Counted from the stretch's first letter, positions 3,583-61,812 are shown. The stretch is 64,000 bases of DNA from an uncultured Candidatus Saccharibacteria bacterium (GCA_964385105.1 CAYLMU010000001.1:66252-130251); one strand, 5' to 3'. Notes: a model not told the origin generated them from the sequence alone. Made by a program: numbers and translations.

Positions 3583-3583
3583 A

Positions 3584-7000: not shown

Positions 7001-7330
7001 TAACCAGTCGTTAGGATTTAAGCTAATTGAAATACCAACGGCACCGGGCAAGTCTTCCATAGCCTCGGGTCCGTACAGTTCTAGGGCTTCCGGACTGACT
7101 TCCTTAGTTGGTTTAATTTGAGCCTTTAGTGAACTTTCAAAATCTTTTTTAATTCTTTCAATAAACCATGCCGGAATATCTGTATCTTTTTCGAATGTAT
7201 TAAAAAATTTGCCAAAATCCAATAAATCCAAATCAGGGTTACCTGTAAAACGCCGGCCTCCTGAAGGTCTTTTATATAAAGGTCTGTCTCCTGGGTAATA
7301 CCCGAGATAAAACGGATTTGAACTTGCCAT
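4094..7330 (-). CDS. Large (1078-aa) protein: a ~800-aa N-terminal domain with no signal peptide, a single TM, a Gly-rich linker, and a C-terminal papain-fold cysteine peptidase (CHAP / NlpC-P60 superfamily) cell-wall hydrolase domain.
   Basis: TM segment VGIPVGCLILLILLLGGAFTTAIP. Candidate catalytic Cys lies in GQCFPIP or LGCGTIF, and the His in the VILVLLHVGTVYTG motif. Gram-positive T4SSs carry CHAP/NlpC hydrolases (PrgK/TcpG/TraG-like). Confidence 0.55.
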   Translation of the reverse strand: MASSNPFYLGYYPGDRPLYKRPSGGRRFTGNPDLDLLDFGKFFNTFEKDTDIPAWFIERIKKDFESSLKAQIKPTKEVSPEALELYGPEAMEDLPGAVGISISLNPNDWLSDPGEQFKKTVKDWFKAIADWDDFDTLNREQLWENVLSDVDIYRTARNKSRLRPIRRLQEKFDEIDVALQHEATTSLAQRLDGSGAAGAVHAAANPLSLDHPDIGEYRKLKHSILSFQVNSRNVILRENKYDAVISSAAKALKADLEKNVTPASYTPEAQMFLLKNELHEKISSLQKAVDYEGLVSGGKKTSLQEKLDTFLLTGNIKDAPNTADLNVIRAKIGEAETFLQQLNNTPEGLAIQRRLGRSVINPFKVYLEDLNKFVAVGSDVADIARKVDGLGTAQPSLVLRAELTKNIAEARNSIVNVGSRGNIFGRGGLAGGDPFSRSVNRRLLRDMERDIRNEENDAFTGTDNIIKLRTIFRRLEQERDYAAAEELLRAFEGKRLLSTYLWPRFKNRIEVLTPAYWSNKFLTRVHRLGFVVNKDYADDNGIAFFWGFKLTGSTAGGLGSLLLKPLEHKFNVNFEAGGRNFALRNVTAGSHFKIIEDIGSALSTGKLDIRAFEELLHAGVSIGDTAGLDALYASLTARYGTLPFKRAEFDAIYFNLQKFKDWMSKNHGKFGFSAADIADPGIMAGFIKRIFYTKVDNRGALKPSRRYVGILEKINEKLNNLQHWFTTTRAGRLVSSASNIKSIVANRVVDGISRVTARLLASIAEGATAGVASPLVEFLVPIVRKVMYVVLIKTMDTAQGTFKAFFKGDFSQLIESWDKTYDYMTKTLLYGVGIPVGCLILLILLLGGAFTTAIPQRNPIAGIGGGVGGGDIRSEGGGEYRRCGFHSVDVKSLNGCVFAEGYTVWQRSYINNEEQASRHGSNLYWSTIPGSLGQCFPIPAYVSPYPKSPIATEAPNNKCLNTPPESEYYGYAEDVHPLGCGTIFLPEMTGITTWQVSSPRASNVGNVTTVTGLDVRGNPQVILVLLHVGTVYTGEKKPGDAAAELYDWGNNTHVHFEMALPNGPGDFIPARPEDYICK

Positions 7331-7393
7331 AGAATAATTCTATAATGAAAGGGCTTTTACTGAAAGAGTAGTCGTGATAAAATTCTTTTAAAC

Positions 7394-8818: not shown

Positions 8819-8887
8819 ACAAGCATCCGCAGTATAAACACATAACATAATTGCCTAATAAGCAAATACCCCGTAAAATAAGACCAA

Positions 8888-10621
8888 ATGCCCATTAACG
8901 ATGTACAAAAAACCAATAAACAACACGCTGTACCTCAAAACATAATGGATGTTGAATTCAAAATAATAGGGGATCTTACTATGCGGCAGTTTTTTTACCT
9001 TTTGGTTTTTTTTGGATTTGCATATTCTATTTTTACTTTGTATAACGGTTTTCTTAAATGGCCATTAATTTTATTTTTAGTATGTGCAGGGTTGGCATTT
9101 GCCTTTTTGCCAATAGAGGAGAGAAGTCTAGATCAATGGGTTGTTAATTCATTTAGGGCCATTTATAAAGACACACAATACGTATGGCGTAAAACCCCTG
9201 AAATACCTCCGGCATTTTCGTTTGAAAATATGAGTGTTGTTAAACAAGAATTAATTACTTTAACACCTACATCAAGTAGAAGAAAGCTTGAAGAATTTTT
9301 AGAAGCTCAAACAGATAAAACCGTTATCGACCCTTTGGACATTCCGGAAGTTTCTTATATAAAAATGGTTAGACAGGGGTTTAAAAATGCCGCGCCGGTA
9401 ATAGAAGTGGAAGGTGAGGTTGAACCAACATTTCCGGCATATGATGAGTCTGCCAAAAATCAGGCACAATCTTCAGAAGAACCAACACAAAACGTTCCTG
9501 TGCAAGAAGTGCCACTACAAACCCCGTCAACATCTACACCTGCACCTATACAACCGGAACCTGCTAAACAATCCATATCCACTGACACACCAAAACAAGA
9601 TCAGCCACAACAAAAACCCACAAAACCTCCTGAAGAGAAAAAGCACCATCACCCATCAATAAAACTTCCAAAACTTCCTCATGTACCACGTCCGCTATTG
9701 CCAAAACATGTAGATGAACCTATTGAGGTATCAAAAGGGCCATTCCTTGCACCGATTACGCCCGATCAGCACTCAGGCCGAAAATTCACAAGTTTATTAC
9801 CAAAACAAGGGGAAATTATCTTGCCAATCAGAGGAGAAACGGTAATACAAACTACGGAAGAGGCGGAAATTGAAGAAGATATTGAAGAAAAAGCAGAACA
9901 ATTAAGAAAACTTTTATCTCATATACGACAAACCGAAAATATTCCTGAAACCACAAGAATTGAAAGCCAAATTGAAGAGAAATCTATAGACATAAAACCA
10001 GATGAAAAAGAAGCAATACAGCCCGAAGTTCAAGACACACTCGAGCAATTAAAAAGAGACAATGAAAGATTAAAAAAAGAAATTGAACAGTTAAAACGCG
10101 AAATAACCAAACCTCAAACATCAACCGAAAGGTCTGAGAAAATTACAACGTTAAAGCGTCTTGAACACGAACAGCATGAAAAAGAAGAGGCATATTCTTT
10201 GATTAAAAATAAACTTTCAAACATCCAGGAAAAAATATTTGTAAAACGTCAACCTGAATCTGAAAATATAAGTAATGAAAATGACGTACAGGAATGGAGT
10301 ACGCCTTCTAATGCAGTTGAACCTACATATGCTAAAATGAAACCCTTAAACGAAACACCGAATTTATTATCGGGTGTAGTTGTTGACCCGGCAGATAAAA
10401 GACTTGAGGGAATAATTTTAATAGTTAAAAATAACAAAGACGAGCCGGTTAGAGCTTTAAAAACAAATCAAACCGGACAATTTAGCATAAGCACACCGTT
10501 AGCTAATGGAGTTTATACTGTTGAAACAGATAAATCGAAACGAACTAACTATACCTTTGATATAATTAAAATCGTTACAAAAGGAGAGGTAATCCCTCCT
10601 ATAGAAATAAAAGGAAAATAA
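8888..10621 (+). CDS. PrgI/VirB3-like two-TM N-terminal domain fused to a Pro/Gln-rich linker, a coiled coil and a C-terminal beta-sandwich (carboxypeptidase-regulatory-like) domain.
   Basis: The N-terminal motif IIGDLTMRQFFYLLVFFGFAYSI, followed by a second TM, resembles the PrgI family. Also present: a low-complexity PTKPPEEKKHHHPSIKLPKLP region, a coiled coil LEQLKRDNERLKKEIEQLKREI, and a C-terminal GVVVDPADKRLEGIILIV beta domain. Confidence 0.45.
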   Translation: MPINDVQKTNKQHAVPQNIMDVEFKIIGDLTMRQFFYLLVFFGFAYSIFTLYNGFLKWPLILFLVCAGLAFAFLPIEERSLDQWVVNSFRAIYKDTQYVWRKTPEIPPAFSFENMSVVKQELITLTPTSSRRKLEEFLEAQTDKTVIDPLDIPEVSYIKMVRQGFKNAAPVIEVEGEVEPTFPAYDESAKNQAQSSEEPTQNVPVQEVPLQTPSTSTPAPIQPEPAKQSISTDTPKQDQPQQKPTKPPEEKKHHHPSIKLPKLPHVPRPLLPKHVDEPIEVSKGPFLAPITPDQHSGRKFTSLLPKQGEIILPIRGETVIQTTEEAEIEEDIEEKAEQLRKLLSHIRQTENIPETTRIESQIEEKSIDIKPDEKEAIQPEVQDTLEQLKRDNERLKKEIEQLKREITKPQTSTERSEKITTLKRLEHEQHEKEEAYSLIKNKLSNIQEKIFVKRQPESENISNENDVQEWSTPSNAVEPTYAKMKPLNETPNLLSGVVVDPADKRLEGIILIVKNNKDEPVRALKTNQTGQFSISTPLANGVYTVETDKSKRTNYTFDIIKIVTKGEVIPPIEIKGK

Positions 10622-10622
10622 C

Positions 10623-11321
10623 ATGCCCATGATTAAAGCTACTACACAACAACATCTCGATATTGAAGACATTAAAGACAACATGGTTATTTTAAAAAAC
10701 GGGGCTGTTAGTGTAGTTCTTGAAACAACAGCCGTTAACTTTGACCTGTTATCCGAAATTGAACAAGACGCTATGATTGCAGCATTTTCTATGTTGTTAA
10801 ACTCAATATCGTTTCCAATTCAGGTTGTTGTGAGATCAAAAAGACTTGATATAACAAAATATCTTGAAAAAGTGCATAGGGTAGAGCAAAAAATAACCGA
10901 CCCGCTTCTTAAAATCCAGGCTCAATATTACCGCAAATTCGTACAGGAAGTTATTGAAAAAAATGATGTATTAGATAAAAAATTTTATGTGGTTATAAGC
11001 TATGGAGGCTCAGGTACGGTACAAACAGGCAAAAACCCGTTTGACTGGGTTTTGGTTTTGTTTGGTCTGCACAACCGTCGCACAAATGTAGACGTGGAAA
11101 GTGTTTTGCAAAAAGCACGTACAGATTTGGGGCCAAAAATTGACCACGTTTCTGCGGAATTTAACAGACTTGGAGTAAAAACCCGACAATTGAGCACACA
11201 AGAGTTGGTTGAATTATACTTTGATATATACAACCCAACAACGCTACACGGCCAAAGAATAAGAACAAGTGTAAGTGATTATAAAACAGCAATAGTAAAT
11301 CCTGCTATAGTTGAGGAATAA
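10623..11321 (+). CDS. VirB4 N-terminal-domain-like protein (232 aa): either a separate ORF or the split 5' part of VirB4.
   Basis: The motif HLDIEDIKDNMVILKNGAVSVVLETTAVNFDLLSEIEQDAMIAAFSMLLNSISFPIQVVVRS resembles the extreme N-terminus of Gram-positive VirB4 proteins. Its stop lies 2 nt before the next ATG, in the -1 frame. Confidence 0.45.
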   Translation: MPMIKATTQQHLDIEDIKDNMVILKNGAVSVVLETTAVNFDLLSEIEQDAMIAAFSMLLNSISFPIQVVVRSKRLDITKYLEKVHRVEQKITDPLLKIQAQYYRKFVQEVIEKNDVLDKKFYVVISYGGSGTVQTGKNPFDWVLVLFGLHNRRTNVDVESVLQKARTDLGPKIDHVSAEFNRLGVKTRQLSTQELVELYFDIYNPTTLHGQRIRTSVSDYKTAIVNPAIVEE

Positions 11322-11323
11322 AT

Positions 11324-13312
11324 ATGAAAATACCTGCAGTAACTTTATTTAAAAAAAAGCATAAAGAACAACCTGATACTCAAGCACAAGCACAAGTCAC
11401 AGAACCTGCAAATCAAAAAAAGCCTGCTGAAGTTTTGGCTGAAGGAATGATTAACGTAAAAGACATTATTGCGCCGCCGGCAATTGAAGTTGATTTTAAT
11501 TTTTTAAGGATAGGCAATACTTATTACAGAACTTTGTTTGTATCAGGTTATCCAAGGTTTGTGGGCGCCAACTGGTTATCGCCTGTGATTAACTTTGACC
11601 ACTCTCTTGATCTTTCAATGTTTTATTATCCTGTTGAATCAAAAGGAATTCTTGATGACTTAAGAAGAAAAATTACCGAAATGGAAGCTACAAGCATGTC
11701 TAATAGAGAAAAGGGTAAAATTAGCGACCCTACAGTAGAAATTGCATTAGGGGATGCTAAAGCTTTGCAGGAACAATTGGTAAAAGGTGTTGAGAAATTC
11801 TTTCAGTTTTCTTTTTATATCACTATACCCGCCGACTCGCTTGATGAACTTGAAAAAGTAACTAAGAAGCTTGAAGCCACACTCGGCTCACTTTTGTTAA
11901 TTTCAAAAACATCTACATTACAAATGGAAGACGCTTTTCAATCAACAATTCCCGCTGCCATGGATAAAATGCTTATCACAAGAAACATGGATACTACCAG
12001 TTTAGCTACAACATTTCCATTCACATCATCCGACCTTACATCAGACGAAGGAATAATGTACGGAATAAACAGGCACAATGGGTCATTAATTGTTTTTGAC
12101 AGGTTTTCGCTTGAAAATGCAAATAGTGTAGTATTTGCTAAATCCGGTGCCGGTAAATCATACATGATAAAACTTGAAGCATTGCGATTGATGGTATTTG
12201 GAGCAGAGATACTAATTATCGACCCCGAAGAGGAATACAGAGCATTGTGTGATGCTGTAGGGGGTAATTATATTAGCTTCGCAGCAAACTCCCCATCAAA
12301 AATAAATCCTTTTGACCTATCGGGAATTGCAACTGAAGGTGAAAACGAATTGGGTCAAAAACTTTTATCTTTACACACACTATTTAAGCTAATGTTGGGC
12401 GATCTTAATCCAACAGAAGAAGCGTTACTTGACCGTGCTTTAATGGAAACTTACAGAATAAAAGGTATAACAACCGATCCTGATACACAACGTTCAAAAG
12501 AGCCTCCAATTATGGAAGATTTATATAAAGTGCTGTTAGGAGCTGAAGAACCCGAAGCAAGAAGTATGGCTGAAAGACTTGAAAAATACATTAAAGGTTC
12601 GTTAACAGGTATATTTGACAATCAGTCCACAGTTAACCTCGGCAGTAGAATGACGGTATTTTCAACACGTAATCTGGAAGATATATTAAAACCCATTGCC
12701 TACTACATAATTCTTGATTTTGTGTGGACAAGAATTAAAAAGGATTTAAAAAAGCGTATATTAATTGTTGAAGAAGCATGGTCTTTGCTTCAAGACGAGG
12801 ACAGTGCAAGATTTTTATATGGTGTAGCAAAAAGAGCTAGAAAATACTATTTAGGTCTTACAACCATTACCCAGGACGTCCAGGACTTTCTAAGTTCTGA
12901 TTTTGGGAAAGCTATTGTTACAAACTCATCCATACAAATTTTATTAAAACAGCATCCGGCCTCAATTGACCAAATAGCCGAAACATTTTACCTATCTGAA
13001 GGAGAAAGAAGACTTTTACTATCTGCAGATAAAGGTGAAGGATTATTTTTTGCAGGTTCAAATCACGTTTCAGTTAAAGTAAAGGCTTCTGACGCTGAAC
13101 ATAAATTAATAACTACAAACCCGCAGGAAATTCTTGAAATGAGAAATGAACAGATTAATAAAGCTTCTGTTGATTTGCAAAAACCTGTTTACAAACCGTT
13201 TGAGCGCTTTGAGAGTAGCAAATATGATGAAATCGAAACACCACAGCAAAACCCGCAAACAAACAATGAACCAAACACTTTTCCTCAAAATCCCGAAGAA
13301 CAGTTAGCTTAG
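11324..13312 (+). CDS. virB4: VirB4/TraE-family T4SS ATPase.
   Basis: Walker A FAKSGAGKSY, a Walker B / DEAW-like motif ILIVEEAWSLL, and an N-terminal VirB4 signature IAPPAIEVDFNFLRIGNTYYRTLFVSGYPRFVGANWLSP. Confidence 0.75.
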   Translation: MKIPAVTLFKKKHKEQPDTQAQAQVTEPANQKKPAEVLAEGMINVKDIIAPPAIEVDFNFLRIGNTYYRTLFVSGYPRFVGANWLSPVINFDHSLDLSMFYYPVESKGILDDLRRKITEMEATSMSNREKGKISDPTVEIALGDAKALQEQLVKGVEKFFQFSFYITIPADSLDELEKVTKKLEATLGSLLLISKTSTLQMEDAFQSTIPAAMDKMLITRNMDTTSLATTFPFTSSDLTSDEGIMYGINRHNGSLIVFDRFSLENANSVVFAKSGAGKSYMIKLEALRLMVFGAEILIIDPEEEYRALCDAVGGNYISFAANSPSKINPFDLSGIATEGENELGQKLLSLHTLFKLMLGDLNPTEEALLDRALMETYRIKGITTDPDTQRSKEPPIMEDLYKVLLGAEEPEARSMAERLEKYIKGSLTGIFDNQSTVNLGSRMTVFSTRNLEDILKPIAYYIILDFVWTRIKKDLKKRILIVEEAWSLLQDEDSARFLYGVAKRARKYYLGLTTITQDVQDFLSSDFGKAIVTNSSIQILLKQHPASIDQIAETFYLSEGERRLLLSADKGEGLFFAGSNHVSVKVKASDAEHKLITTNPQEILEMRNEQINKASVDLQKPVYKPFERFESSKYDEIETPQQNPQTNNEPNTFPQNPEEQLA

Positions 13313-14433
13313 TTATTAATATGCATGGGAGCCATAACATGCAAGAATACAGTGTTTTCAGCCGGTTTTATTAAACATGGAGTAACATTGTCGTTGGCAT
13401 GAAAAATCAGCTTCTCAAATTTATTGTTTGATAGAAAATCAAGCAAAAATCTAGCGTTAAACATAATTTCCAGCTCCTTTTCCATCTCGCCTAAAACTTC
13501 TGCAGAAAATTCGGTGTGATTTTCACCTGTTTCTTGAGCCGAAGATGTTACCCTTATATAACCCTCAGGGCTAATAATTAATTTTAAAGTATTATTTTCA
13601 TCCTTTTTTGAAAAAACGTGAGTGAGTTTAACAGCCTCAAATAAGTCCTGAGACATAAATGCTGCCTGCACACTTGTTTGGGATGGAATTATACGTTTGT
13701 AATCAGGATACATTCCATCAATAACCCTTGTAGCTATAACCGTATCTTCACATTCAAAAATACACAAATTTTCATTCTCATTAAGATATACTTTTATATT
13801 TTCTCCACAACTGCTAAAAATCCGGGCTGTTTCAAGTAGTGTTTTTGCCGGGAGAATCAACGAGAAACTTTCGGCTTGGGATTCAATATTTAAAATTCGT
13901 TCGCTTAGCCTAAATCCGTCGGAAGCGGCAATATATAAATTACCTTCATTGTAATTTAAGTAAATTCCTGTAAATATAGGCCTTGAACTGTCGTTTGAAA
14001 CGGCAAAGCCAACCTGAGACACAGCTTCTGCAAACTCTTTTGGTGAAATTTCAAATAACGGGTTTGACGTTGTTACTTCAGGCAAAGTAGGGTAATCAAC
14101 CGAATTTATGCCGTTTATTTTAGATTTTGTCTTTCCGGCGGTAATATGCACAATATCGTTTTCCATACTGATTACAACCTGATCGCTTGATAAATTTGAT
14201 ATAAATTCGGAAAGAATCCTTGCAGGTACAGTCACAGAACCTTCTTCTTCAATAGAAGCTCCTACAAATGATGTTATGGTGGTATCAAGGTCGGTACCGG
14301 CAATTTGCAGACGTCCGTCTTTTGAAACTATAAGCACGTTAGACAACACAGGCATCGAGTGCTTAATCGGCACAGCTTTAGATACAATACCGAGACTTTT
14401 AACTAAGTTTTCTTTTAGGCAAGTAAATTTCAT
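13309..14433 (-). CDS. dnaN: DNA polymerase III beta sliding clamp.
   Basis: Colinear similarity to E. coli DnaN along its length (MKFT..., the TDL motif, FPDY-like region). Its stop codon overlaps the virB4 stop. Confidence 0.9.
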   Translation of the reverse strand: MKFTCLKENLVKSLGIVSKAVPIKHSMPVLSNVLIVSKDGRLQIAGTDLDTTITSFVGASIEEEGSVTVPARILSEFISNLSSDQVVISMENDIVHITAGKTKSKINGINSVDYPTLPEVTTSNPLFEISPKEFAEAVSQVGFAVSNDSSRPIFTGIYLNYNEGNLYIAASDGFRLSERILNIESQAESFSLILPAKTLLETARIFSSCGENIKVYLNENENLCIFECEDTVIATRVIDGMYPDYKRIIPSQTSVQAAFMSQDLFEAVKLTHVFSKKDENNTLKLIISPEGYIRVTSSAQETGENHTEFSAEVLGEMEKELEIMFNARFLLDFLSNNKFEKLIFHANDNVTPCLIKPAENTVFLHVMAPMHINN

Positions 14434-14442
14434 AAATATATT

Positions 14443-14895
14443 TTAATCAGTTGGCTTTAAAACTATATGTCTGTCAAAACCCTCGCCGATACTAAAGGTT
14501 TCAATATCATCATAGCCGCTTATAAACTCATGAATGTGTTTTCTCTCATATGCAGTCATTGGAGGTAAATGTACTTCTTCTTTAAAAAAACGTGCTCTGT
14601 CAATATAGCTTTTTGCCATTAATTCAAGCTTTTCTTCTTTTGCATCAACATAATTATTTATATCAACGGTAATATTTTTCCACTCACCAAATTTTCTATG
14701 CACAGCTAAACTTAAAAAATGCTGTAGACCACTTAATGAAGTACCGCGATAACCGATTAAAAAACTTAAGTCATCACCTTTAATGTCAATGTTTATAGCA
14801 TCACCATCCGCACTTACCTCAAATGTAGGCTCAATTTTTAAATGCGAAAAAACTTCTTTTAAGGTGTTTTTTATAAATTCGTTAATTTCCTGCAT
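14443..14895 (-). CDS. khpB: Jag/KhpB RNA-binding protein (KH + R3H domains).
   Basis: R3H-like C-terminus and the conserved position downstream of yidC. Confidence 0.75.
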   Translation of the reverse strand: MQEINEFIKNTLKEVFSHLKIEPTFEVSADGDAINIDIKGDDLSFLIGYRGTSLSGLQHFLSLAVHRKFGEWKNITVDINNYVDAKEEKLELMAKSYIDRARFFKEEVHLPPMTAYERKHIHEFISGYDDIETFSIGEGFDRHIVLKPTD

Positions 14896-15643
14896 TTTGC
14901 TTTTTTGTTCTTTTTCCTAAAACTAAATATGTTTGGGCAAGTGAAAAGACTGTTGTAGTTAAGAAATATAATACAGCCCCTGCCGGCAGTGAAATACTTA
15001 TAATTACAGATATTACTGGCATTACATATAACATCTGCTCCTGCATATTATACGCAATATCATCCGTTTTGTCAGGAGTTTGCTCGGCTATTTTTTCGGC
15101 TTTTTTAGTAAACCCTAATGACATTTTAGAAGTAAAAAACTGAAGTATTCCAACTGACAAAGCCAAAATATAAGGAAACCCTTCCGGTTTGGTAAGATCA
15201 AACCATAAAAATTCCGTATTAATTGTACTTGTGGTGAATTTAACAAAATCAAAGTAAAGTTCATGGTTCAATGACATCATGTCTTCTGTTCTGGAAATTA
15301 TAGATATTGCATTGTACAAAGCATAAATCACAATAAACATGGGTATTTGTGTTAAACATCCTGCAGCAGGATTTAGGCCATGTTCTTTAAAAAGTTCCAT
15401 TTGTGCTTCCGCCTGCTTTTTTTTGTTATTTTTGTATTTTTCTTTGATTTTATCTATTTGAGGTTGTAATTCACGCTGCTTTTTCATTTGCCTCATAGAT
15501 GGTACGAGTGTGGGTATTAGAATTACTCTAACTATAATTGTTAATAAAATAATGGCTATACCTAAATTTCCGGTTAATTGGTATAAACCGGCCAAAGTAT
15601 TTAATATTGGTTCAACTAAAATTGTGTGTAAAAATCCGCTCAT
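14882..15643 (-). CDS. yidC: Membrane protein insertase YidC (short Gram-positive/Oxa1-like form).
   Basis: Multi-TM protein with the conserved YidC core, sitting in the canonical rnpA-yidD-yidC-jag operon. Confidence 0.85.
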   Translation of the reverse strand: MSGFLHTILVEPILNTLAGLYQLTGNLGIAIILLTIIVRVILIPTLVPSMRQMKKQRELQPQIDKIKEKYKNNKKKQAEAQMELFKEHGLNPAAGCLTQIPMFIVIYALYNAISIISRTEDMMSLNHELYFDFVKFTTSTINTEFLWFDLTKPEGFPYILALSVGILQFFTSKMSLGFTKKAEKIAEQTPDKTDDIAYNMQEQMLYVMPVISVIISISLPAGAVLYFLTTTVFSLAQTYLVLGKRTKKQNAGN

Positions 15644-15645
15644 AA

Positions 15646-15861
15646 TTATTTAACAGGGTCGTAACCGCCCTTACTAAAGGGGTTGCATCTTATAACTCTC
15701 CAAACACCCATTAAACCACCTTTAAAAATACCATATTTTTCTACAGCTTCATAAGTGTAGCGAGAACAGCTTGGCTCAAAACGGCATAATTTAATTCCGT
15801 ATCTACCTGGAGAAAGGTAAGTTTTGTAAAACCTTAGTAAAGTCAGAATTAAGCTCTTCAT
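15646..15861 (-). CDS. yidD: Membrane protein insertion efficiency factor YidD.
   Basis: YLSPGRYGIKLCRFEPSCSRYTYEAVEKYG matches the YidD signature. Confidence 0.85.
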   Translation of the reverse strand: MKSLILTLLRFYKTYLSPGRYGIKLCRFEPSCSRYTYEAVEKYGIFKGGLMGVWRVIRCNPFSKGGYDPVK

Positions 15862-16162
15862 AACTTTTTCCTAAAACTTTATACTTTGGATACAATACTA
15901 TCCAATAACCATTTTCTATTTTATCAAGATTATTTCTTATTATTTCTCTAAACAATCTTTTTATTCTGTTTCTTTTAGCCGAAGATTTATGTATACGATT
16001 TGAAACTACAATACCAAATTTAGACGGACCCTCATAATTATAGGGCTTTATATAATTTATAAAAAAAAGGTCTCCGGAAGACGAGGTTTTATGTTTTTCA
16101 GATAAATACTTAACTTTTCTGAACTCATAATTTGACCTCAAGCGATTATCACTGGGTAACAT
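15803..16162 (-). CDS. rnpA: RNase P protein component.
   Basis: Basic ~119-aa protein between rpmH and yidD; the operon position is conserved. Confidence 0.8.
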   Translation of the reverse strand: MLPSDNRLRSNYEFRKVKYLSEKHKTSSSGDLFFINYIKPYNYEGPSKFGIVVSNRIHKSSAKRNRIKRLFREIIRNNLDKIENGYWIVLYPKYKVLGKSYEELNSDFTKVLQNLPFSR

Positions 16163-16171
16163 GCTATAAAG

Positions 16172-16324
16172 TTACTTCTTTTTTAGAAGAACAACAAGTT
16201 TTTTTCTACCTTTTGCACGTCGATTTTTAAGAACACGTTTTCCGCCGGGCGAGGCCATGCGTTTTAAAAATCCGTGTTTTTTTACTCTTTTTCTTTTTTT
16301 TGGTTGCCAAGTTCTTTTAGGCAT
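16172..16324 (-). CDS. rpmH: 50S ribosomal protein L34. True start is the internal ATG; the track ORF is 14 codons too long.
   Basis: [45 protein letters not shown] is a canonical L34 sequence. Confidence 0.9.
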
Positions 16325-16402
16325 AACAACAGGCATATTAAAGCAATTAAGGTAATTAGTCAACAAAAGAAAGCGTAGTTCTAACCATAATTGCTTTATT
16401 TA

Positions 16403-16411
16403 TGTGGATAA
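16403..16411. promoter_or_regulatory. Perfect DnaA box (TGTGGATAA) in the rpmH-dnaA intergenic region, overlapping the spurious upstream ATG of the dnaA ORF.
   Basis: Exact 9-mer match to the reverse-complement DnaA box consensus. Confidence 0.6.
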
Positions 16412-16431
16412 CATTTATAGACTTATACACA

Positions 16432-17835
16432 ATGACACAGGTTTTACTAGACGAAAAAAAACTTTGGAAAGCAGTACTGGCAGAAATGGAAGTTAACTTT
16501 TCGGGTACTAACTATAATGTCTGGCTTTCAAACACACGGGCACAAAATTTAACTGAAAACACATTAGACGTGGTTTGTCCTAATTCATTTGCCCGGGAGC
16601 GGGTAGAAAAGCTGTTCAGACCTTTTTTAGAAGAAAGTGTCAGTAAAATTACAAGAAGAAAAATAGATTTGGTGTTTAAGGTAGGTTCCGTAGAAACTGA
16701 CAACTTACAAAATAAATCCAAAACAAAAAATGATGAAACTCCTTTATTTAAAAAAATTGAAAGCAATGAACAAAATATAGTACCCGCCTCAGACTTTGGG
16801 CTTAACATAACATACACTTTTGAAAATTATTTAATGGGAAACACTAATAGACTGGCCTATGCTATAGCATCATCAATAGCAGATAACCCCGGAAAATTAC
16901 ATAATCCGTTTTTTTTGTATGCAGGTGTTGGGCTTGGAAAAACTCACCTTATACAGGCAATAGGCAACAAAGTATTAAAAGACAAACCGGGATTAAAAAT
17001 TCTTTACTGTACTGGCGAGCAATTTACAAATGAATTAATTGAAGCTCTTCAAAAAGGTAAATCAAAAGGTAAATATAGTTCAGACCAATTTAGAAAAAAA
17101 TATCGAAGCGCCGATGTATTAATAATTGATGATATTCAGTTTATTGCAGGCAAAGAAGCGACTCAAGAAGAATTTTTTCACACATTCAACGATTTATACA
17201 TGAATCAAAAGCAAATAGTCTTAGCTTCAGACCGAAACCCCGAAGAATTTAAAAACATAGAAGAACGACTCACATCAAGATTTAAAAGCGGAATAATGGC
17301 CGACATACAATCTCCTGATTACGAATTACGAACAGCCATATTAAGACACAAAAGAGATAAAAATAAAGATAACATACAAAACGAAGTACTTGATTTTATA
17401 GCAGAAAATATAACAACCAACATTAGAGAATTAGAAGGAGCGTATAACCAGGTGTTAACTTATTCAAAAGCAACCGGAGAAATTCTTAATGTGGCAACGG
17501 CAAAAACAGCATTAGGAAATATAGTACAAGATAAAAGATCAAAACCTGTAAATTTAAATACAATATTAAAAGCAGTGTGCAACTATTATTCAATCACACA
17601 GACTGAGATAAAAGGCAAGAGAAGAAATAAAGAAGTGGTTATTCCAAGGCAAATAGCTATGTTTTTAATTTATGATCTTACTGAAACACCGTATTTAAGT
17701 ATAGGAGAATTTTTGGGAGGCCGGGATCATACCACTATAATGCACGGGGTATCTAAAATCGAAACTGAAATGAAAAATGACACAAAAATGAAACAGGATG
17801 TGTTAAATATTAAACAGTTTATATATCAAAACTAA
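16432..17835 (+). CDS. dnaA: Chromosomal replication initiator DnaA (start corrected to the MTQVLLDEKKLW... ATG).
   Basis: N-terminus aligns with DnaA domain I, followed by an AAA+ Walker A GVGLGKTHL and a C-terminal DNA-binding domain. Confidence 0.9.
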   Translation: MTQVLLDEKKLWKAVLAEMEVNFSGTNYNVWLSNTRAQNLTENTLDVVCPNSFARERVEKLFRPFLEESVSKITRRKIDLVFKVGSVETDNLQNKSKTKNDETPLFKKIESNEQNIVPASDFGLNITYTFENYLMGNTNRLAYAIASSIADNPGKLHNPFFLYAGVGLGKTHLIQAIGNKVLKDKPGLKILYCTGEQFTNELIEALQKGKSKGKYSSDQFRKKYRSADVLIIDDIQFIAGKEATQEEFFHTFNDLYMNQKQIVLASDRNPEEFKNIEERLTSRFKSGIMADIQSPDYELRTAILRHKRDKNKDNIQNEVLDFIAENITTNIRELEGAYNQVLTYSKATGEILNVATAKTALGNIVQDKRSKPVNLNTILKAVCNYYSITQTEIKGKRRNKEVVIPRQIAMFLIYDLTETPYLSIGEFLGGRDHTTIMHGVSKIETEMKNDTKMKQDVLNIKQFIYQN

Positions 17836-18257: not shown

Positions 18258-19412
18258 ATGATTTTTTATTTTTCACTGTATTTTTCTAAATTAACAAATA
18301 TCTTAATTAGATTTTTAAAAAAAGGTGCCGGGCATACATTACCGGGTCATGTTTTTTTAAAGTTTAATCCTGAATTTTTAAGTTCAAAGAGAGTTCATTT
18401 TTCAAAAGGAATCATTTTAATTTCCGGAACTAATGGTAAAACTACAACATCCAAAATTGTTACACATTTACTTAAGTCACAAGGATTGAGAGTTTTGAAT
18501 AATGAGACAGGTGCCAATTTAGTAAACGGTATTACCTCATCTATTTTGTTAAATATGAACTGGAGAGGGAAGTTGCAGGCAAATGTTGCAGTACTTGAGG
18601 TGGATGAGTTTGCCGTGCCTTTGTTTTTAAATAAAATCACCCCCGACGTGGTTTTGTTGTTAAATCTTTCGCGTGACCAACTTGACAGGTTTGGCGAGAC
18701 GGATATTATTTTGGATAAGTGGATAAAAGCGCTCTCAAACCTTAATATTTCAACCAAACTTATATTAGACAGCACCGAAGAAAGTTTTAAAAAGCTTGAA
18801 GATGCTTTTCAAGGTACAACATTTTATTTTAACGATGATGTTGAAAATTTAAATCACACATCATTAAAAGGAATGTTTAATGCAAAAAATGTAAATGCTT
18901 CATTACAGGTATGTGAGGTTTTAGGTTATAAAAAAGACGATTTATTAAGCGATCTTGGAAATTTTGAATCTGCATATGGTAGAGGAGAAGTGGTTACTTA
19001 CAAAGGAAAAGAATTTCACATATTTTTAGCAAAAAATCCGGCGAGTTTTAATCATAATATTGATTTACTGAGTAGTTTTGACCCAAACAATACAGCACTT
19101 TTATTTGTACTTAATGATAATATCCCCGACGGACGTGATGTATCGTGGATTTATGACATAGACACTGCATCTTTAAGTCATTTTGTACCTGATTATTCAC
19201 ACATTTATATTTCAGGCACCAGATATCTTGATATGGCTATTAGATTGAGATATGCAAATGTACCCATTAACGAGTCACGTTGCGCTAAAGAAATTGAAAA
19301 AATCCTTAAACAGGTGGTTGAAAATAAAAAAATTAAGCATGTTTTGTTATTCCCTAATTACTCGGCAATGCTTGAGTCGCGTAAAATATTAACAGGAAAG
19401 GCTATTTTGTAA
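18258..19412 (+). CDS. murT: Lipid II isoglutaminyl synthase subunit MurT (Mur-ligase-like).
   Basis: Strong colinear similarity to S. aureus MurT (ISGTNGKTTTS... NLSRDQLDRFGE). Confidence 0.85.
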   Translation: MIFYFSLYFSKLTNILIRFLKKGAGHTLPGHVFLKFNPEFLSSKRVHFSKGIILISGTNGKTTTSKIVTHLLKSQGLRVLNNETGANLVNGITSSILLNMNWRGKLQANVAVLEVDEFAVPLFLNKITPDVVLLLNLSRDQLDRFGETDIILDKWIKALSNLNISTKLILDSTEESFKKLEDAFQGTTFYFNDDVENLNHTSLKGMFNAKNVNASLQVCEVLGYKKDDLLSDLGNFESAYGRGEVVTYKGKEFHIFLAKNPASFNHNIDLLSSFDPNNTALLFVLNDNIPDGRDVSWIYDIDTASLSHFVPDYSHIYISGTRYLDMAIRLRYANVPINESRCAKEIEKILKQVVENKKIKHVLLFPNYSAMLESRKILTGKAIL

Positions 19413-34497: not shown

Positions 34498-35415
34498 TTA
34501 AAACCCTAAAGGAAAAAACTTATTCATCACACTCAAAACCGGATTAAACACTTTTATACAAGACTCAGGAAATTCTAGTGTATTCCCGCCGAATTTTGAT
34601 TTAAACTCAGTAAATCCTTGCCACTTTTTTGTAAAAGGAACCCTTTTGTCATAAATACCTTCGAGGTCAAGTAATAAAAATCCTTGTTGTTTAAAATACA
34701 AAATTGCTTCCCAAAATAATAAATATCCGCTTTTAGAACCGCCTGCAGCATTTGAAAATCTTGTTGTTCCTCCGTGCAAATACCATACACTCTTTTTGTG
34801 GCAAACATAAAATCCTCCGCTTAAATTTTCTAAATTTTTGTTTTGAGCCAGCAAAATGTAACAATCGTCACCGAAAATACGTGCTTTTGACAAAAGATCT
34901 TCATAGCTATAGGGGGTAAAATTTTTTTGTTGCGCTGAGTTTTTGTATAAGTTATAAAATTTTTCAACAATTTTTGCTGATGGGTTTTGATGAGCATAAA
35001 CCGCGACACCTTCACGTTTGGCTCGGTTGACTCCATATTTTCCGCTTGTAGATAACGCGTTCCACTGCAATTTTTCGTCTTGTTCAAGCTCGATAATCAA
35101 AGTTTTCGTAGGAGATAAAGGGTTTTTGCTTTTTTGGTAACCGCTGTTTTGTAAAAGACTTGCACTTTGCTGGTCTTGTGGTTCTATTGTTATAACCAGA
35201 CACTTATTATCTTTACAAATTTTTTCAAATTCTAAAATGTCACTTTGACGTAAAGTTTGCGGACGTTGTACTTTTGCTACGCTAAACCCAAATTTTTTGT
35301 AAATGTTTAATGTTATCCCATTTTGGGTAGTATAAGATTTCCATCCGTTTGTATTTAAGTACTTTGCCCATTTTTCGGATTGTCTAAAGTCTTCTTGTAC
35401 CAGCGTTTCCTGCAT
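34498..35415 (-). CDS. FemAB-family peptidoglycan interpeptide-bridge aminoacyltransferase.
   Basis: FemAB/FemX-like C-terminal motifs (GGTTRFSNAAGGSKSGYLLFWEAILYFKQQG). Confidence 0.6.
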   Translation of the reverse strand: MQETLVQEDFRQSEKWAKYLNTNGWKSYTTQNGITLNIYKKFGFSVAKVQRPQTLRQSDILEFEKICKDNKCLVITIEPQDQQSASLLQNSGYQKSKNPLSPTKTLIIELEQDEKLQWNALSTSGKYGVNRAKREGVAVYAHQNPSAKIVEKFYNLYKNSAQQKNFTPYSYEDLLSKARIFGDDCYILLAQNKNLENLSGGFYVCHKKSVWYLHGGTTRFSNAAGGSKSGYLLFWEAILYFKQQGFLLLDLEGIYDKRVPFTKKWQGFTEFKSKFGGNTLEFPESCIKVFNPVLSVMNKFFPLGF

Positions 35416-36356
35416 TATCTTATAGCTTTCAAAAAGCGCATAACTTTAGGGTATGTTGTATTAAATAAGTTATAAACTGTAGGGTTTAATATGTAGTCAT
35501 AAGAATCCATGTATTCAATGTGTGTGCCTCCAAACCTTAATTTAAAATTGGTGAATCCCCATTCGGGGTCTGTTTGGTCTGTAGGGTCGGCACATGCACC
35601 CCACATATCAAATTTTGTGCATCCGTATGCTTTACCTAATTTTATTGCTTCCCATCCGATTAAATTACTCGCAAAAAGGTTTCTGTTTTCGTTACTCGAG
35701 CCGCCGTAAGGATAATAAAGCGTGTTTTGATGAGTAAATAGCATCCACGAGGCCAAAGGCTTGTTCTGATACTCAGCAATTAGAAGATGAGCAATTTGTT
35801 TTGGGTAAAACATTTCCCAAATCTTTTTATAGTATTCTTTAGGATGGTTTAAAAACTTCTGTCTTTTTCCGGTTTCTTCTAAAAGTTCATAAAATATTTC
35901 AAAATCTTTATGTATTTGGCCTTTGCGTACTTTAACACCTTCTTTTTCGGATTTTCTTGCATTATACCTGTGCTTTGTATGCATGCCCATTAACAATGCT
36001 TCTTCAGGTTTTGATATATCTAAAATAATATTGTATTTAGTGAAAGTATTTTTTGGCGATGGCTTTACATTTTCTTGGGAACGAAATATTTTGACTGCTT
36101 CTTCTGCTTGTGGAGAATCTTTTTGTACATAAGGCACATCAAAATTTATTGTAAAACAGTTGTTTAGTTTTAAAGAGTTGGTCAATTCTCCCCATTGAAT
36201 TTCAAAAGGGTTTACCTTAGGGCAATAAGCGTAATAAAAGTTCGTAAACGGTAATTTGTGTTTTGTGTATTGTACGTTACCAACCCTAATAGCAGGTGTA
36301 CCGAATTCTGACTTAAAATCGCCCCATTCCGGCGATTGTACAAGGTGCTGAGTCAT
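35415..36356 (-). CDS. FemAB-family aminoacyltransferase, a tandem paralog.
   Basis: NLIGWEAIKLGKAYGCTKFDMWG ... FKLRFGG resembles the FemA region WEMINYALNHGIDRYNFYG ... KFKKG. Confidence 0.6.
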   Translation of the reverse strand: MTQHLVQSPEWGDFKSEFGTPAIRVGNVQYTKHKLPFTNFYYAYCPKVNPFEIQWGELTNSLKLNNCFTINFDVPYVQKDSPQAEEAVKIFRSQENVKPSPKNTFTKYNIILDISKPEEALLMGMHTKHRYNARKSEKEGVKVRKGQIHKDFEIFYELLEETGKRQKFLNHPKEYYKKIWEMFYPKQIAHLLIAEYQNKPLASWMLFTHQNTLYYPYGGSSNENRNLFASNLIGWEAIKLGKAYGCTKFDMWGACADPTDQTDPEWGFTNFKLRFGGTHIEYMDSYDYILNPTVYNLFNTTYPKVMRFLKAIR

Positions 36357-38535: not shown

Positions 38536-38623
38536 ACCACAATCTTGGAAAAGATGCAAAATGACATGGTTTCATTATATAGGAAAAAATTACTATAAAA
38601 GTATATTATAATAAGCATATCTT

Positions 38624-38697
38624 GCCGGGGTAGTTTAATTTTAAAACCACTCAATTGTTTTGAGAAAATGTAGGTGAAAGCCCTACCCCCGGCTCCA
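38624..38697 (+). ncRNA. tRNA-like cloverleaf (tRNA(UGU)-like) with genome-encoded CCA but non-canonical D and T loops.
   Basis: - Perfect 7-bp acceptor stem GCCGGGG / CCCCGGC, then T + CCA
- U8 and A14 present
- 4-bp D stem GTTT / AAAC
- 4-bp anticodon stem with a 7-nt loop ATTGTTT (U33-UGU)
- 5-bp T stem GTAGG / CCTAC
- D loop lacks GG, and the T loop is TGAAAGC instead of TTCRANY
- TATAAT at 38607-38612 lies just upstream
GC-rich stems stand out against the AT-rich surroundings. Confidence 0.3.
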
Positions 38698-38707
38698 AAT
38701 TTTAAAT

Positions 38708-39751
38708 ATGCAAAAAGAGGTAAACGATTATTTACACACACTTTTAAAAGAATTTAAGCCATATCTGCTTACTGAAGAAGACCAGAAAAAAACCGCGCGT
38801 GACAAAGCAGAATTTTTAACCGAAAAGCTCGCTTTGAGCAAATACCGCAAGAGAAAATTAGCTTCAACAACCCGCCAAGCCATATACAACAAAGTAAACA
38901 TGAGTATAGAACAAAACAGGCCATTACATTTTGTTATTCCTTTTGGAGGTTACAAACATTTTTGGAACCCTTCACACCCCGAGCCTGACTGGGCAGAACT
39001 GTTTAATTTTAGATATTTAACCGAATATGTCTCACCGGTGTTAGCAATACACGAACCCGGCGTAATCATTGAGTATGTATCAGAAGATATGATTATGACA
39101 AGAATGGATAATTACCCTCGTGATGTACTAGAAACATATGCGCGTGTTTTTAAAGAGCTTATAAACTGGTATAACAAGCAAACTCCAAACAATTTGGATT
39201 TTAGATATTTTAGGGTTGGCGATAGATGTGACAAAGAAAAAATAATACAAATTGTAGAGGGACTGCTTCCCGAAAGGCGGGCAATGTTTGATAAACTCTC
39301 ACAAAATGAAAAAGATAGGGAGCTTCATAGAAGCAAAAGGTCATTTTATTGGGACGGTGAGTTTGATTTTACACATTTAGATGATGAAGAAAAGTACAAT
39401 AAAATAGTGGAGTCACGTTTGATTGAACTTGCTTATTACGAAACCGAAGGGCTGCCGGAATTTCTGGGTGACTATCTAAGTAACGATGAACATATTTGTA
39501 TACTTTTTTCATTCGGCACCACTCCCGACAATGATGAATTTCAAGGTTTAACACTTGGATCAACGTACGGATCGCTCGTAGATCATTGGATTGGGAGAGG
39601 GGTTTTAGAAAAAAGAGAAAGTCAGTTCTTTCCGCGTATTGTTTCGAAACAGCAGTATGAGGATGCTAAAGAAAATATTATTGAGGTGATTATAGAAGAG
39701 CTACTTCCCTTTAAGAATTATAAGTTTATTGATGTAGTGGATAAGAGATGA
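38708..39751 (+). CDS. Hypothetical cytoplasmic protein (347 aa).
   Basis: Long ORF with coding-like composition; no recognisable domain. Confidence 0.5.
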   Translation: MQKEVNDYLHTLLKEFKPYLLTEEDQKKTARDKAEFLTEKLALSKYRKRKLASTTRQAIYNKVNMSIEQNRPLHFVIPFGGYKHFWNPSHPEPDWAELFNFRYLTEYVSPVLAIHEPGVIIEYVSEDMIMTRMDNYPRDVLETYARVFKELINWYNKQTPNNLDFRYFRVGDRCDKEKIIQIVEGLLPERRAMFDKLSQNEKDRELHRSKRSFYWDGEFDFTHLDDEEKYNKIVESRLIELAYYETEGLPEFLGDYLSNDEHICILFSFGTTPDNDEFQGLTLGSTYGSLVDHWIGRGVLEKRESQFFPRIVSKQQYEDAKENIIEVIIEELLPFKNYKFIDVVDKR

Positions 39752-44794: not shown

Positions 44795-45304
44795 ATGCTC
44801 ATACCCTACTCACACATGAAGAAAATAAACAGAAAACTTATTGTTGTATTAGTAATAGTTAGTATTATAGGTATAGCTATGGGCTTAAATTTACACCTTG
44901 ACAAATCCCCGAATCCAAAATCTACAGCTTCGGTGACTATAAATAACGCCAGAGTTTTTGTTGAGGTAGCACAAACACCCGCTGAAAAACAAAAAGGCTT
45001 AATGTTTAGAGAATATATGGCTGAAGACGAGGGAATGTTATTTATACTTGATTCAACGGGCATATATTCATTCTGGATGAAAAATACTTTAATTCCACTT
45101 GATTTGATTTGGTTTGACGAAAATTGGCGTATTGTTGATATAAAGCAAAATGTCCCCCCATGTACTGTTCCAACAGACCAAAGATGCCCAAGTTATACAC
45201 CAAAGTTACCAGTAAGATATACTTTAGAAGTAAATGGAGGGTGGGTTGAAAAGAATAATGTGTCTATAGGAGATTATGCTCAATATCAACCCCAAGTGTA
45301 CTAA
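44795..45304 (+). CDS. DUF192 (COG1430)-family protein, signal-anchored.
   Basis: GLMFRE...MLFI...IPLDLIWFDENWRIVDI pattern. Confidence 0.65.
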   Translation: MLIPYSHMKKINRKLIVVLVIVSIIGIAMGLNLHLDKSPNPKSTASVTINNARVFVEVAQTPAEKQKGLMFREYMAEDEGMLFILDSTGIYSFWMKNTLIPLDLIWFDENWRIVDIKQNVPPCTVPTDQRCPSYTPKLPVRYTLEVNGGWVEKNNVSIGDYAQYQPQVY

Positions 45305-46262
45305 ATCCATGATCCAGCATTAAAATCATATCGCTTCTTCTATCATTACTTCCTAAAACAACTCCTACAAGCTCTACCCCGTCATTTTCAGCATAAGATA
45401 CCAGGCAAAGACCTGCTGCTCCGGTATAACCGGTTTTCAAACCTAAAACCCCTGGATAAGTGTTTAATAAGTTAGTTTGATTATACAGTTGTTTTGTTGC
45501 ATGTTTACCCGGTTCTTCTAAAGTTTTTTCTAAAGTTTTGGCAATTTCTCTAAAATCAGGGTCTTTTAGTGCGTAGCGCGTTAGTTTTACAAGTTCATAT
45601 GCTGTGCTGTAAGTGTCGTTATCTAATCCGCTTGGGTCTGCAAAGTATGTATTTTCAAGACCCAGCTCTTTTGCTTTTAAATTCATCCAATATACAAATG
45701 TTTCTGTGTCTCCGGCTACTGCTTCAGAAATTGCATAAGCCGCGTCATTGCCCGAATTTAAAATTAGCCCGTACAACAACTCTTCAAGTGTATACTCTTC
45801 ACCTTCCAAAAGTCCCATAGAGTTTTCACCTATACTTGCAGCGTTTTTACTAATTACCACTTTTTGGTCTAGGTCAGCATGTTCCAAGGCTATGATTGCT
45901 GTCATTACTTTTGTGATACTGGCAATTTTTCTTTTTTCGTGTGCATTTTTTTCAAACACAACTTTTCCCGAATCAAGTTCAACTACAATGCCGGACTTGC
46001 CATTAACAATCGGTTGATTTGATGTATTTATTGTGTCTGTAGTTTGCCAGGAAATTTCAGGATCGTAAGATTTTTTTAATGTAGCAAAGTAATTTTGTCT
46101 GTCAGGAAGTTCTTTTTCGCTAACAAAACCGCTAATAACAAGGGTTTCAGAAGAGTGTGCGGAGCTAACTACCAGTGTTGCACTGATAATGACTATACTC
46201 GCCAAAATTATTAGGTAGCTTTTTTTGAGTACATTTCTCATGGGCAAGTGATATGTTATCAT
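45264..46262 (-). CDS. Serine-type D-Ala-D-Ala carboxypeptidase (PBP5/DacA-like, S11).
   Basis: SxxK (ASITKVMT), SGN (LNSGNDAA) and KTG (LKTGYTG) motifs. Confidence 0.85.
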   Translation of the reverse strand: MITYHLPMRNVLKKSYLIILASIVIISATLVVSSAHSSETLVISGFVSEKELPDRQNYFATLKKSYDPEISWQTTDTINTSNQPIVNGKSGIVVELDSGKVVFEKNAHEKRKIASITKVMTAIIALEHADLDQKVVISKNAASIGENSMGLLEGEEYTLEELLYGLILNSGNDAAYAISEAVAGDTETFVYWMNLKAKELGLENTYFADPSGLDNDTYSTAYELVKLTRYALKDPDFREIAKTLEKTLEEPGKHATKQLYNQTNLLNTYPGVLGLKTGYTGAAGLCLVSYAENDGVELVGVVLGSNDRRSDMILMLDHGFSTLGVDIEHNLL

Positions 46263-61670: not shown

Positions 61671-61760
61671 ATGGCGGAAGGAGGGGGATTCGAACCCCCG
61701 AGGCGCTTGCGCGCCGCGTCGCTTTCCAGGCGAGCCGATTAGTCCACTCTCGCATCCTTC
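61671..61760 (-). tRNA. tRNA-Ser (anticodon GGA), class II with long variable arm, CCA encoded.
   Basis: The reverse complement folds as GGAAGGA ... CTGGAAA anticodon loop ... GGGGGTTCGAATCCCCC TCCTTCC G CCA, with a perfect acceptor stem and a canonical T arm. Confidence 0.85.
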
Positions 61761-61812
61761 CAAGGTTATGGCAGCTTACATTTTAACATTTGCATGATTA
61801 GATTAAATAGAA

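Follow-up and report, generated by a model that had tools for sequence, protein, structure and literature searches.

What is the tRNA-shaped element that sits between two protein-coding genes of an uncultured Candidatus Saccharibacteria bacterium, and does it serve the ribosome or some other machinery? The element lies in a 64,000-nucleotide (nt) stretch of that organism's DNA (GCA_964385105.1 CAYLMU010000001.1:66252-130251; hereafter the window), in the intergenic region 38536-38707 between a SpoU-family methyltransferase gene (PF00588; 38050-38535) and a gene for a protein of 347 amino acids (aa; 38708-39751, plus strand). A first-pass annotation of the window, made from the sequence alone, had described a non-canonical cloverleaf with an encoded CCA at this place, and had listed an unusual isoacceptor, a recombination element and a donor for cell-wall transferases among its possible roles. 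Judged from its sequence and from those of its relatives, the element is a real tRNA gene with anticodon UGU and threonine identity. With the enzyme encoded directly downstream it probably makes up a functional unit, one not described previously.

ARAGORN identified the window tRNA as tRNA-Thr(tgt). The Rfam tRNA model RF00005, which has a gathering score of 29 bits, matched it over model positions 1-71 with 44.7 bits (E 2.3e-8, in a 500-nt search), and a custom family model (R1) gave 92.4 bits. The minimum free energy fold of the tRNA strand is the cloverleaf itself (-24 kcal/mol, z = -3.2 versus shuffles). Together with the covariation presented below, these searches place a Thr-type tRNA(UGU) of 71 nt plus an encoded CCA at 38624-38697 on the plus strand, between the two genes where the cloverleaf had been reported. 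A gathering-mode Rfam scan of the whole window returned no match for this tRNA or for the second tRNA of the window, a canonical tRNA-Ser at 61672-61761. This is a speed-filter artefact; short pieces score about 44 bits each. Upstream, a -10 promoter box (TATAAT, 38607-38612, plus strand) is read from the sequence 11 nt before the tRNA 5' end, close to the distance of about 12 nt given earlier. No -35 hexamer matches this box, and a hexamer scan therefore left it uncalled. The suggestion of an unusual isoacceptor was correct in that the element is a genuine, non-canonical tRNA with its own -10 box and an encoded CCA.

From its 5' end the tRNA (all coordinates on the plus strand) consists of a 7-bp acceptor stem (GCCGGGG, 38624-38630, with CCCCGGC, 38687-38693), the linker UA, a D arm (GUUU AAUUUUA AAAC, 38633-38647), a single C, an anticodon arm (ACUCA AUUGUUU UGAGA, 38649-38665), a variable region (AAAU), a T arm (GUAGG UGAAAGC CCUAC, 38670-38686), a discriminator U (38694) and CCA (38695-38697). 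The anticodon UGU (38656-38658) is held in the loop A32 U33 U34 G35 U36 U37 U38 (38654-38660). The first-pass annotation had listed U8, A14, U33, the UGU anticodon, the discriminator U and CCA, and the tRNA carries all of them; the missing G18G19 of the D loop and the missing T-psi-C of the T loop, also reported there, were read directly. Its claim of perfectly paired stems holds for the acceptor stem but not for the anticodon stem, where A27 and A43 are mismatched in the standard register. A32 and U38 could pair, and ViennaRNA favors a shifted 5-bp anticodon stem (28-32/38-42) with a 5-nt loop.

Set beside canonical bacterial tRNA-Thr(UGU), the window tRNA keeps the 7/4/5/5 cloverleaf, U8, A14, A21, G53-C61, UGU, G1-C72, C2-G71, the 4-nt variable region, CCA, and a score above the RF00005 cut-off. 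It differs in both halves of the elbow: the canonical set of elbow nucleotides (G18, G19, T54, psi55, C56 and A58) is not found, the D loop AAUUUUA is G-less and so lacks G18, a U19:A56 pair stands in place of G19:C56, and the T loop reads UGAAAGC (38675-38681), without T-psi-C. It also differs in the D stem (GUUU/AAAC), in the A27/A43 mismatch, in the pairable A32-U38 and in position 37, which is U and not a purine, although U33 is kept. U33 and purine 37 are almost invariant in decoding tRNAs, and the modification N6-threonylcarbamoyladenosine at position 37 (t6A37) cannot form on U37. The window tRNA scores 15-30 bits below neighboring tRNAs.

Do these departures reflect decay, or are they shared by relatives? 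A family was assembled from protein-first loci found through homologues of the 347-aa protein (one genome per species, 45 loci), from a tRNA-first metagenome scan, and from three further loci; compared loci carry L numbers. A covariance model built from five loci in which the tRNA abuts a homologue found the tRNA immediately before the homologue in 10 loci, and ARAGORN had missed half of these. The metagenome pattern was too loose, and only 11 of its 120 matches were true family members. The three further loci (L166, L169 and L170) contributed two more sequences, giving 21 distinct family sequences; the covariation alignment holds 19. Across all family loci ARAGORN finds 9 of 23 and misses the other 14.

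Compensatory change in relatives had been named in the first-pass annotation as a way to check the fold, and it was found. In the 19 aligned sequences 97% of stem cells are paired and 12 of the 21 pairs have changed on both sides. No shuffle out of 500 reached the observed stem pairing, and slid-register controls were 35-57% paired. A tertiary contact has changed in the same manner: the 19:56 pair is G-C in 15 of 19 sequences, A-U in L129, and U-A in the window (U19 of the D loop at 38641, A56 of the T loop at 38677, plus strand). The elbow is thus remodeled, not lost, with its 19:56 pair kept by compensation. The earlier statement that the D-loop and T-loop losses covary is borne out in this more specific form; G18 and the T-loop pair 54:58 are not conserved across the family.

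The several non-canonical positions, and the many loci that ARAGORN misses, might raise the suspicion of a pseudogene in decay, of folding by chance or of what remains of an attachment site for a mobile element. Compensatory changes in all variable stems and in the tertiary pair, across 19-21 lineages, effectively refute decay and chance, and promoter and spacing are conserved as well. Against an attachment site, a recombination role that had been raised earlier, stand three negative results: the tRNA 3' end is not repeated anywhere in the 64 kb of the window, no integrase domain came up in the Pfam-scanned neighbors, and the 347-aa protein has no homologue in viral contigs. Taken together, we give this group of explanations next to no weight.

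Invariant in the family are G1-C72, C2-G71, C3-G70, G7-C66, U73, C74, U8, A9, A14, A21, A32, U34-G35-U36 and G53-C61, and the D stem GUUU/AAAC is nearly so; UGU is unchanged in 21 of 21 distinct sequences. The identity set recognized by bacterial threonyl-tRNA synthetase (ThrRS) consists of G1-C72, C2-G71, G35 and U36. All of these elements are present, without variation in the 19 aligned sequences and also in L166 and L169, and the tRNA is expected to accept threonine. Variation falls instead on positions whose main importance is in decoding, namely purine 37, U33, the 27:43 pair, G18 and 54:58. Position 37 is A in 14 sequences, U in five (the window among them) and C in two (n = 21), and 27:43 is mismatched in 11 of 19. 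In L169 and L170 U33 is replaced by A33, identically in two independent assemblies, and contig ERZ27252312 k141_4378270 carries this A33/U37 variant; at both loci the tRNA (9923-9994 in each) also has U37 and a 6-nt T loop, and stands directly upstream of the homologue P0073. Family T loops are 6-7 nt long and variable in sequence, the UGA start being specific to the window and UUC or CUC being found in most relatives. Neighboring tRNAs of the same genomes and loci are canonical, with GG and TTCRANT loops and scores of 57-75 bits against 40-53 for the family. These alignments describe a tRNA lineage of Patescibacteria (Microgenomatia and Saccharimonadia) that is old and deviates in structure.

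Does the tRNA decode ACA? Reassignment of this codon was considered and rejected. ACA encodes the invariant Thr of the GAPDH motif ASCTT and of the UvrD motif GSGKT, and therefore means Thr; with 440 of 990 Thr codons it is also the one used most. Affinity for elongation factor Tu (EF-Tu) was estimated by summing the T-stem contributions published by Schrader and Uhlenbeck (PMC3239215, Table 2; Table 4), the reference being back-calculated from the S. aureus tRNAGly entry. The T stem of the window tRNA (G49-C65, U50-A64, A51-U63) gives a predicted affinity of about -9.4 kcal/mol, and the family ranges from -9.4 to -9.7 kcal/mol. Bacterial Thr(UGU) tRNAs have a class mean of -9.8 kcal/mol, with an outlier threshold of 1.3 kcal/mol (PMC3239215). 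The model thus predicts no outlier, contrary to the weak EF-Tu binding that had been supposed in the first-pass annotation.

These results bring in a housekeeping tRNA as a serious contender, which we consider quite possible while stopping short of calling it likely. The gene would be the genome's only tRNA-Thr(UGU), an ACA decoder with a drifted elbow and anticodon loop, and its adjacency to the 347-aa gene would concern expression only: the leaderless downstream gene would borrow the tRNA promoter and be freed by tRNA processing. Such a tRNA would be expected to read the most used Thr codon, to keep its ThrRS identity elements, the 19:56 pair and an unremarkable T stem, and to score above the Rfam cut-off, all of which is observed or predicted. 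No other UGU tRNA was seen in the sequences examined, which for the source genome amount to the 64 kb of the window. The same explanation is harder to reconcile with a pyrimidine at position 37 in seven of 21 members, with A33 in L169 and L170, and with a deviance that is confined to this isoacceptor while neighboring tRNAs are canonical.

An ATG of the 347-aa family follows the odd tRNA directly in 20 of 23 loci (exceptions L058, L095 and L129), and loci of all three sources show the adjacency: 10 found through the protein, 8 of the 11 tRNA-first loci, and L166, L169 and L170. In the window an A/U-rich spacer of 10 nt (aattttaaat, 38698-38707, plus strand) separates CCA from the start codon, and in relatives the ATG begins 3-13 nt past the discriminator U73. 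We found no terminator and no Shine-Dalgarno motif between tRNA and gene. A -10 box (TATAAT or TAAAAT) lies 9-12 nt before the tRNA in most related loci, L016 being without a clear one. Since there is no Shine-Dalgarno motif and the -10 box precedes the tRNA, excision of the tRNA should leave a near-leaderless mRNA. Homologues without the tRNA bear a -10 box 6-12 nt before the start codon, which would likewise make them leaderless. Among window open reading frames (ORFs) of at least 150 aa, about 9 of 50 have a Shine-Dalgarno-like motif and several have a TAnAAT box about 12-17 nt from the ATG; translation in this genome seems to start mostly without a leader or independently of a Shine-Dalgarno motif.

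In a neighbor-joining tree the tRNA-linked genes form one clade (Microgenomatia and Saccharimonadia), a single origin that also suits the housekeeping explanation, and the tRNA has been secondarily lost in Roizmanbacteria (L001, L004, L008) and in L003. The Roizmanbacteria genome CP066689.1 likewise has the gene with no tRNA beside it. In L166 the tRNA (9958-10031) overlaps a public gene call (10001-11095; P0006, 364 aa) that starts within it, and several homologues of 355-365 aa may bear spurious N-terminal extensions because the tRNA is unannotated. In L024 a canonical tRNA-Cys(GCA) with encoded CCA (3916-3990) lies 4 nt before the homologue's ATG, which is the same architecture with another tRNA. 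A transfer-messenger RNA gene (82.8 bits), cut by the locus end, occupies L011 1-357, 3.5 kb upstream of the tRNA-gene module there.

This arrangement raises the question of whether the element acts as a tRNA at all. A tRNA-shaped cis element that is not aminoacylated could serve the mRNA as RNase P/RNase Z punctuation or as a regulatory signal, for example a ThrRS-binding operator. The short distance from discriminator to ATG, the missing Shine-Dalgarno motif, the relaxed conservation at U33, at position 37 and in the T loop, and the tRNA-Cys occupying the same slot in L024 all fit such an element. The strict conservation of UGU, of pairs 1-3:70-72, of U73 and of C74/CCA would be needless for a processing signal alone, and L058, L095 and L129 have family members without the gene. 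We consider a pure cis element improbable.

The gene downstream is the only conserved neighbor. Clustering of all ORFs in 57 loci revealed no other conserved neighbor of the tRNA or the 347-aa gene. SpoU, KsgA and cyclophilin genes are absent from all other loci compared, FemAB and UvrD genes are met again just in L073 and L166, the nearest relatives by synteny, and flanking genes at other loci are unrelated (e.g. PPDK, ClpB, peroxiredoxin). What, then, does the gene encode? A search yielded 195 homologues of the 347-aa protein, almost all from Patescibacteria (the candidate phyla radiation, CPR) and DPANN archaea, to which the one-genome-per-species scan added reduced-genome Bacilli. The family amounts to 452 clusters at 50% identity among 1.84 billion proteins, and its members are always annotated as hypothetical. 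The window protein has no Pfam (E <= 0.01) or NCBIfam match, aminoacyl-tRNA synthetase (aaRS) families included, and some homologues reach 19-24 bits with PF05141 (DIT1_PvcA), below its gathering cut-off of 26.4. The AlphaFold (AF2) model has a mean local confidence (pLDDT) of 91. Foldseek searches with this model against the PDB gave PvcA/IsnA isonitrile synthases as the best matches (9dhm, 9dh4 and 3e59; E 2e-9, template modeling (TM) score 0.57-0.66), followed by tyrosyl-tRNA and tryptophanyl-tRNA synthetases (TyrRS/TrpRS) and cyclodipeptide synthases (E 4e-3 to 1e-1), with E about 4e-3 to 2e-2 and TM scores of about 0.3 for TyrRS/TrpRS. A profile search against PDB sequences agrees weakly with PvcA/IsnA (E 0.04). 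According to the model, the window protein shares the three-dimensional fold of PvcA/IsnA, and we describe it as PvcA/IsnA-like with a class-I aaRS-like Rossmann fold.

Like PvcA/IsnA/Dit1 (PF05141) and the cyclodipeptide synthases, the modeled protein has a two-domain Rossmann-type fold (TM about 0.6 to PvcA/IsnA). CPR, archaeal and Bacilli members alike carry the motif FGGYKHFW(N)xSxPxxDWAE without change; in the window family it follows strand 1 (FGGYKHFW... PDWAE) and aligns with PvcA 'FPTKSPN...PDMAE'. The differences from PvcA/IsnA are an identity of only 13-16%, the missing Pfam match, and an extra N-terminal basic helical segment. This segment is flexible, of lower model confidence, and carries a conserved basic cluster RKKFRRxK. 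In contrast to PvcA, the gene stands alone, without a PvcB-like partner, and is confined to CPR, DPANN and reduced Bacilli. Candidate synthetase signatures, HIGH-like (P78-x-G-x3-H84-x2-N87) and KMSKS-like (R208-S-x-R-S212), were not relied on, the second not being conserved outside the CPR clade. P0142 (593 aa) is the sole member with a fused N-terminal short-chain dehydrogenase domain, a hint of small-molecule chemistry or a gene-call fusion.

Outside the tRNA-linked clade, too, genes related to translation accompany the homologues, and some of them concern threonine. Directly downstream of a Micrarchaeota homologue in L022 there is a tRNA-Thr(UGU) (1610-1678), with a weaker one (25 bits) in L021 (5011-5084). 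Three unrelated lineages have a ThrRS gene, of bacterial or archaeal type, no more than about 2 kb from the PvcA-like gene (L010 5819-7567, L021 517-2208, L042 6371-8065). The housekeeping explanation leaves these associations with archaeal homologues unexplained, as it does the likeness of the partner's fold to aaRS and cyclodipeptide synthases. Other amino acids occur as well: a gene for aspartyl-tRNA synthetase is near the homologue in L003, L035, L036 and L044, and upstream of it there is a tRNA-Tyr in L033 and a tRNA-Ala in L043. The tRNA-Thr(UGU) of L022 and L021 have GG in the D loop and an unusual T arm (CUCAAUG, or a 5-nt loop). L017 has, about 200 nt before the homologue, an archaeal tRNA(CAU) with an intron (3682-3803). 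L058, where the PvcA-like gene is absent, encodes a 497-aa class-II synthetase (5481-6974) about 2.5 kb from the family tRNA; it clusters with ThrRS and has no editing-domain match.

We hypothesize that the Thr-charged tRNA is functionally tied to the downstream enzyme of PvcA/cyclodipeptide-synthase/class-I-aaRS fold, as its dedicated Thr-tRNA substrate or donor. This reading is tentative, and we would put its chances somewhat below even; we nevertheless rank it above the drifted housekeeping decoder. Promoter, tRNA and ORF would be co-transcribed as one transcript. RNase P and 3' processing (by RNase Z, or by trimming to the encoded CCA) would release the tRNA, and the same 3' cut would make the near-leaderless enzyme mRNA; as one cut would release the tRNA and free the mRNA, tRNA and enzyme would be made together. 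ThrRS would then charge the tRNA with threonine, and the Thr-tRNA would serve the downstream enzyme instead of being merely the cell's ACA decoder. The evolutionary logic may resemble that of the staphylococci, in which a broad enzyme family uses ordinary aminoacyl-tRNA and one lineage evolves a dedicated isoacceptor.

Several lines of evidence argue for an enzyme-linked tRNA. Selection appears to have been lost at 33, 37, 27:43, G18 and 54:58 while the ThrRS determinants stayed invariant, and the deviance is limited to this isoacceptor. The sole conserved neighbor has, by its model, the fold of enzymes that handle aminoacyl-tRNA (TyrRS/TrpRS, cyclodipeptide synthases), and carries the conserved basic cluster in its N-terminal segment. 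Finally, tRNA-Thr and ThrRS recur beside distant homologues.

Other observations weigh against it. Some UGU tRNA must decode ACA, the commonest Thr codon, and the window tRNA may be that one. The normal EF-Tu prediction for the T stem and the preserved elbow pair both fit a translational tRNA. As the linked genes form a single clade, their adjacency could be one ancient event, kept by dependence on the tRNA promoter. The tRNA-Cys of L024, the tRNA-Tyr of L033 and the tRNA-Ala of L043 suggest that a tRNA as such, and not threonine, may matter to the gene; that such tRNAs precede it in other lineages, and that its tRNA-less homologues are leaderless, is also what borrowing of a housekeeping promoter would produce. 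PvcA/IsnA, the enzyme's nearest relatives of solved structure, use free amino acids, and one family member is fused to a short-chain dehydrogenase. A wider proposal is put forward with more doubt: that the PvcA-like family of CPR, DPANN and reduced Bacilli is an unrecognized enzyme that depends on aminoacyl-tRNA (using Thr-tRNA) or acts on tRNA, accompanied in one large clade of Patescibacteria by a dedicated, non-decoding, co-transcribed tRNA-Thr(UGU).

Could the user of the tRNA be another enzyme? The first-pass annotation had speculated that a weak-EF-Tu-binding tRNA donates its amino acid, here threonine, to the nearby FemAB peptidoglycan transferases. Two FemAB genes (34498-36356) do lie 2.3-4.1 kb upstream, and the precedent is real: staphylococci have non-proteinogenic (NP) tRNAGly (NP1-3) that are dedicated to FmhB/FemA/FemB and have a T loop with UGN instead of UUC (PMC7826273). 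The UGA of the window T loop resembles their UGC/UGU, and two of three T-stem pairs, U50-A64 and A51-U63, are shared with them (PMC7826273). The FemAB genes are, however, on the opposite (minus) strand, and three unrelated genes separate them from the tRNA; no UGA T loop is shared by the relatives, and the EF-Tu prediction is not that of an outlier for Thr(UGU). Among about 56 related loci, FemAB genes accompany the tRNA in just two, the closest relatives by synteny: L073, and L166, where they lie about 6 kb off. They are absent from the others, each covered to about +/-4 kb. We consider a FemAB donor very unlikely. The more general suggestion of a tRNA dedicated to a non-ribosomal enzyme is viable, with the downstream hypothetical gene as candidate partner in place of FemAB.

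Three known systems help to place this module. The staphylococcal NP tRNAGly also retain their synthetase identity while their D and T loops have degenerated, and they have A-U pairs at both 50:64 and 51:63 (PMC7826273). The window tRNA differs from them in amino acid, in phylum and in an EF-Tu prediction that is normal for its class, and where staphylococci have a Fem transferase, its candidate partner is the PvcA-like enzyme whose gene begins 10 nt further on. In pylT-pylS, too, the tRNA has neither G18G19 nor T-psi-C and directly precedes a gene for a protein of synthetase-type fold. Unlike that pair, the window tRNA reads a sense codon still meaning Thr and has the usual 8-9 linker and a 4-nt variable region; its partner shows no demonstrable HIGH/KMSKS motif and is closest to isonitrile synthases, the likeness to synthetases being one of fold only. 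Mitochondrial type II tRNAs and 'tRNA punctuation' share the weakened contact between D and T loops, and excision of the tRNA would likewise set the 5' end of a leaderless mRNA. The window, in contrast, comes from a bacterial genome of free-living type; every other tRNA seen there is canonical, and a single tRNA-gene junction is so arranged. Neither this tRNA family nor the module of tRNA and gene is described in the literature found here, and searches on CPR tRNA-Thr oddities, on PF05141 in CPR and on tRNA-dependent enzymes in Patescibacteria returned nothing relevant.

For genome annotation, ARAGORN misses and ORF calls that reach into the tRNA mean that many CPR genomes likely appear to be without tRNA-Thr(UGU) or carry mis-started genes. 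For tRNA biology, a swapped 19:56 pair holds the elbow in this family, in which G18, the T-loop motif, purine 37 and even U33 can be lost. Such a pattern of losses is either a striking relaxation for the decoder of a major codon or the signature of a non-ribosomal role. The association also gives a first functional handle on a very conserved 'hypothetical' enzyme common to three reduced-genome groups, and the sequence arrangement is a clear bacterial example of tRNA excision apparently yielding a leaderless mRNA. If the wider proposal on the PvcA-like family is true, this would be the second natural 'non-proteinogenic' tRNA class after staphylococcal tRNAGly, and the first that is genetically fused to its user.

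Elsewhere in the window, dnaN and dnaA, which mark the replication-origin region, adjoin genes resembling those of type IV secretion systems (T4SS pilin, PrgI, TraG P-loop; 13309-17835 and 995-13312). Peptidoglycan-related genes are scattered over the window and comprise a MurT-like ligase, the two FemAB paralogues and a D-Ala-D-Ala carboxypeptidase (18258-19412, 34498-36356 and 45264-46262).

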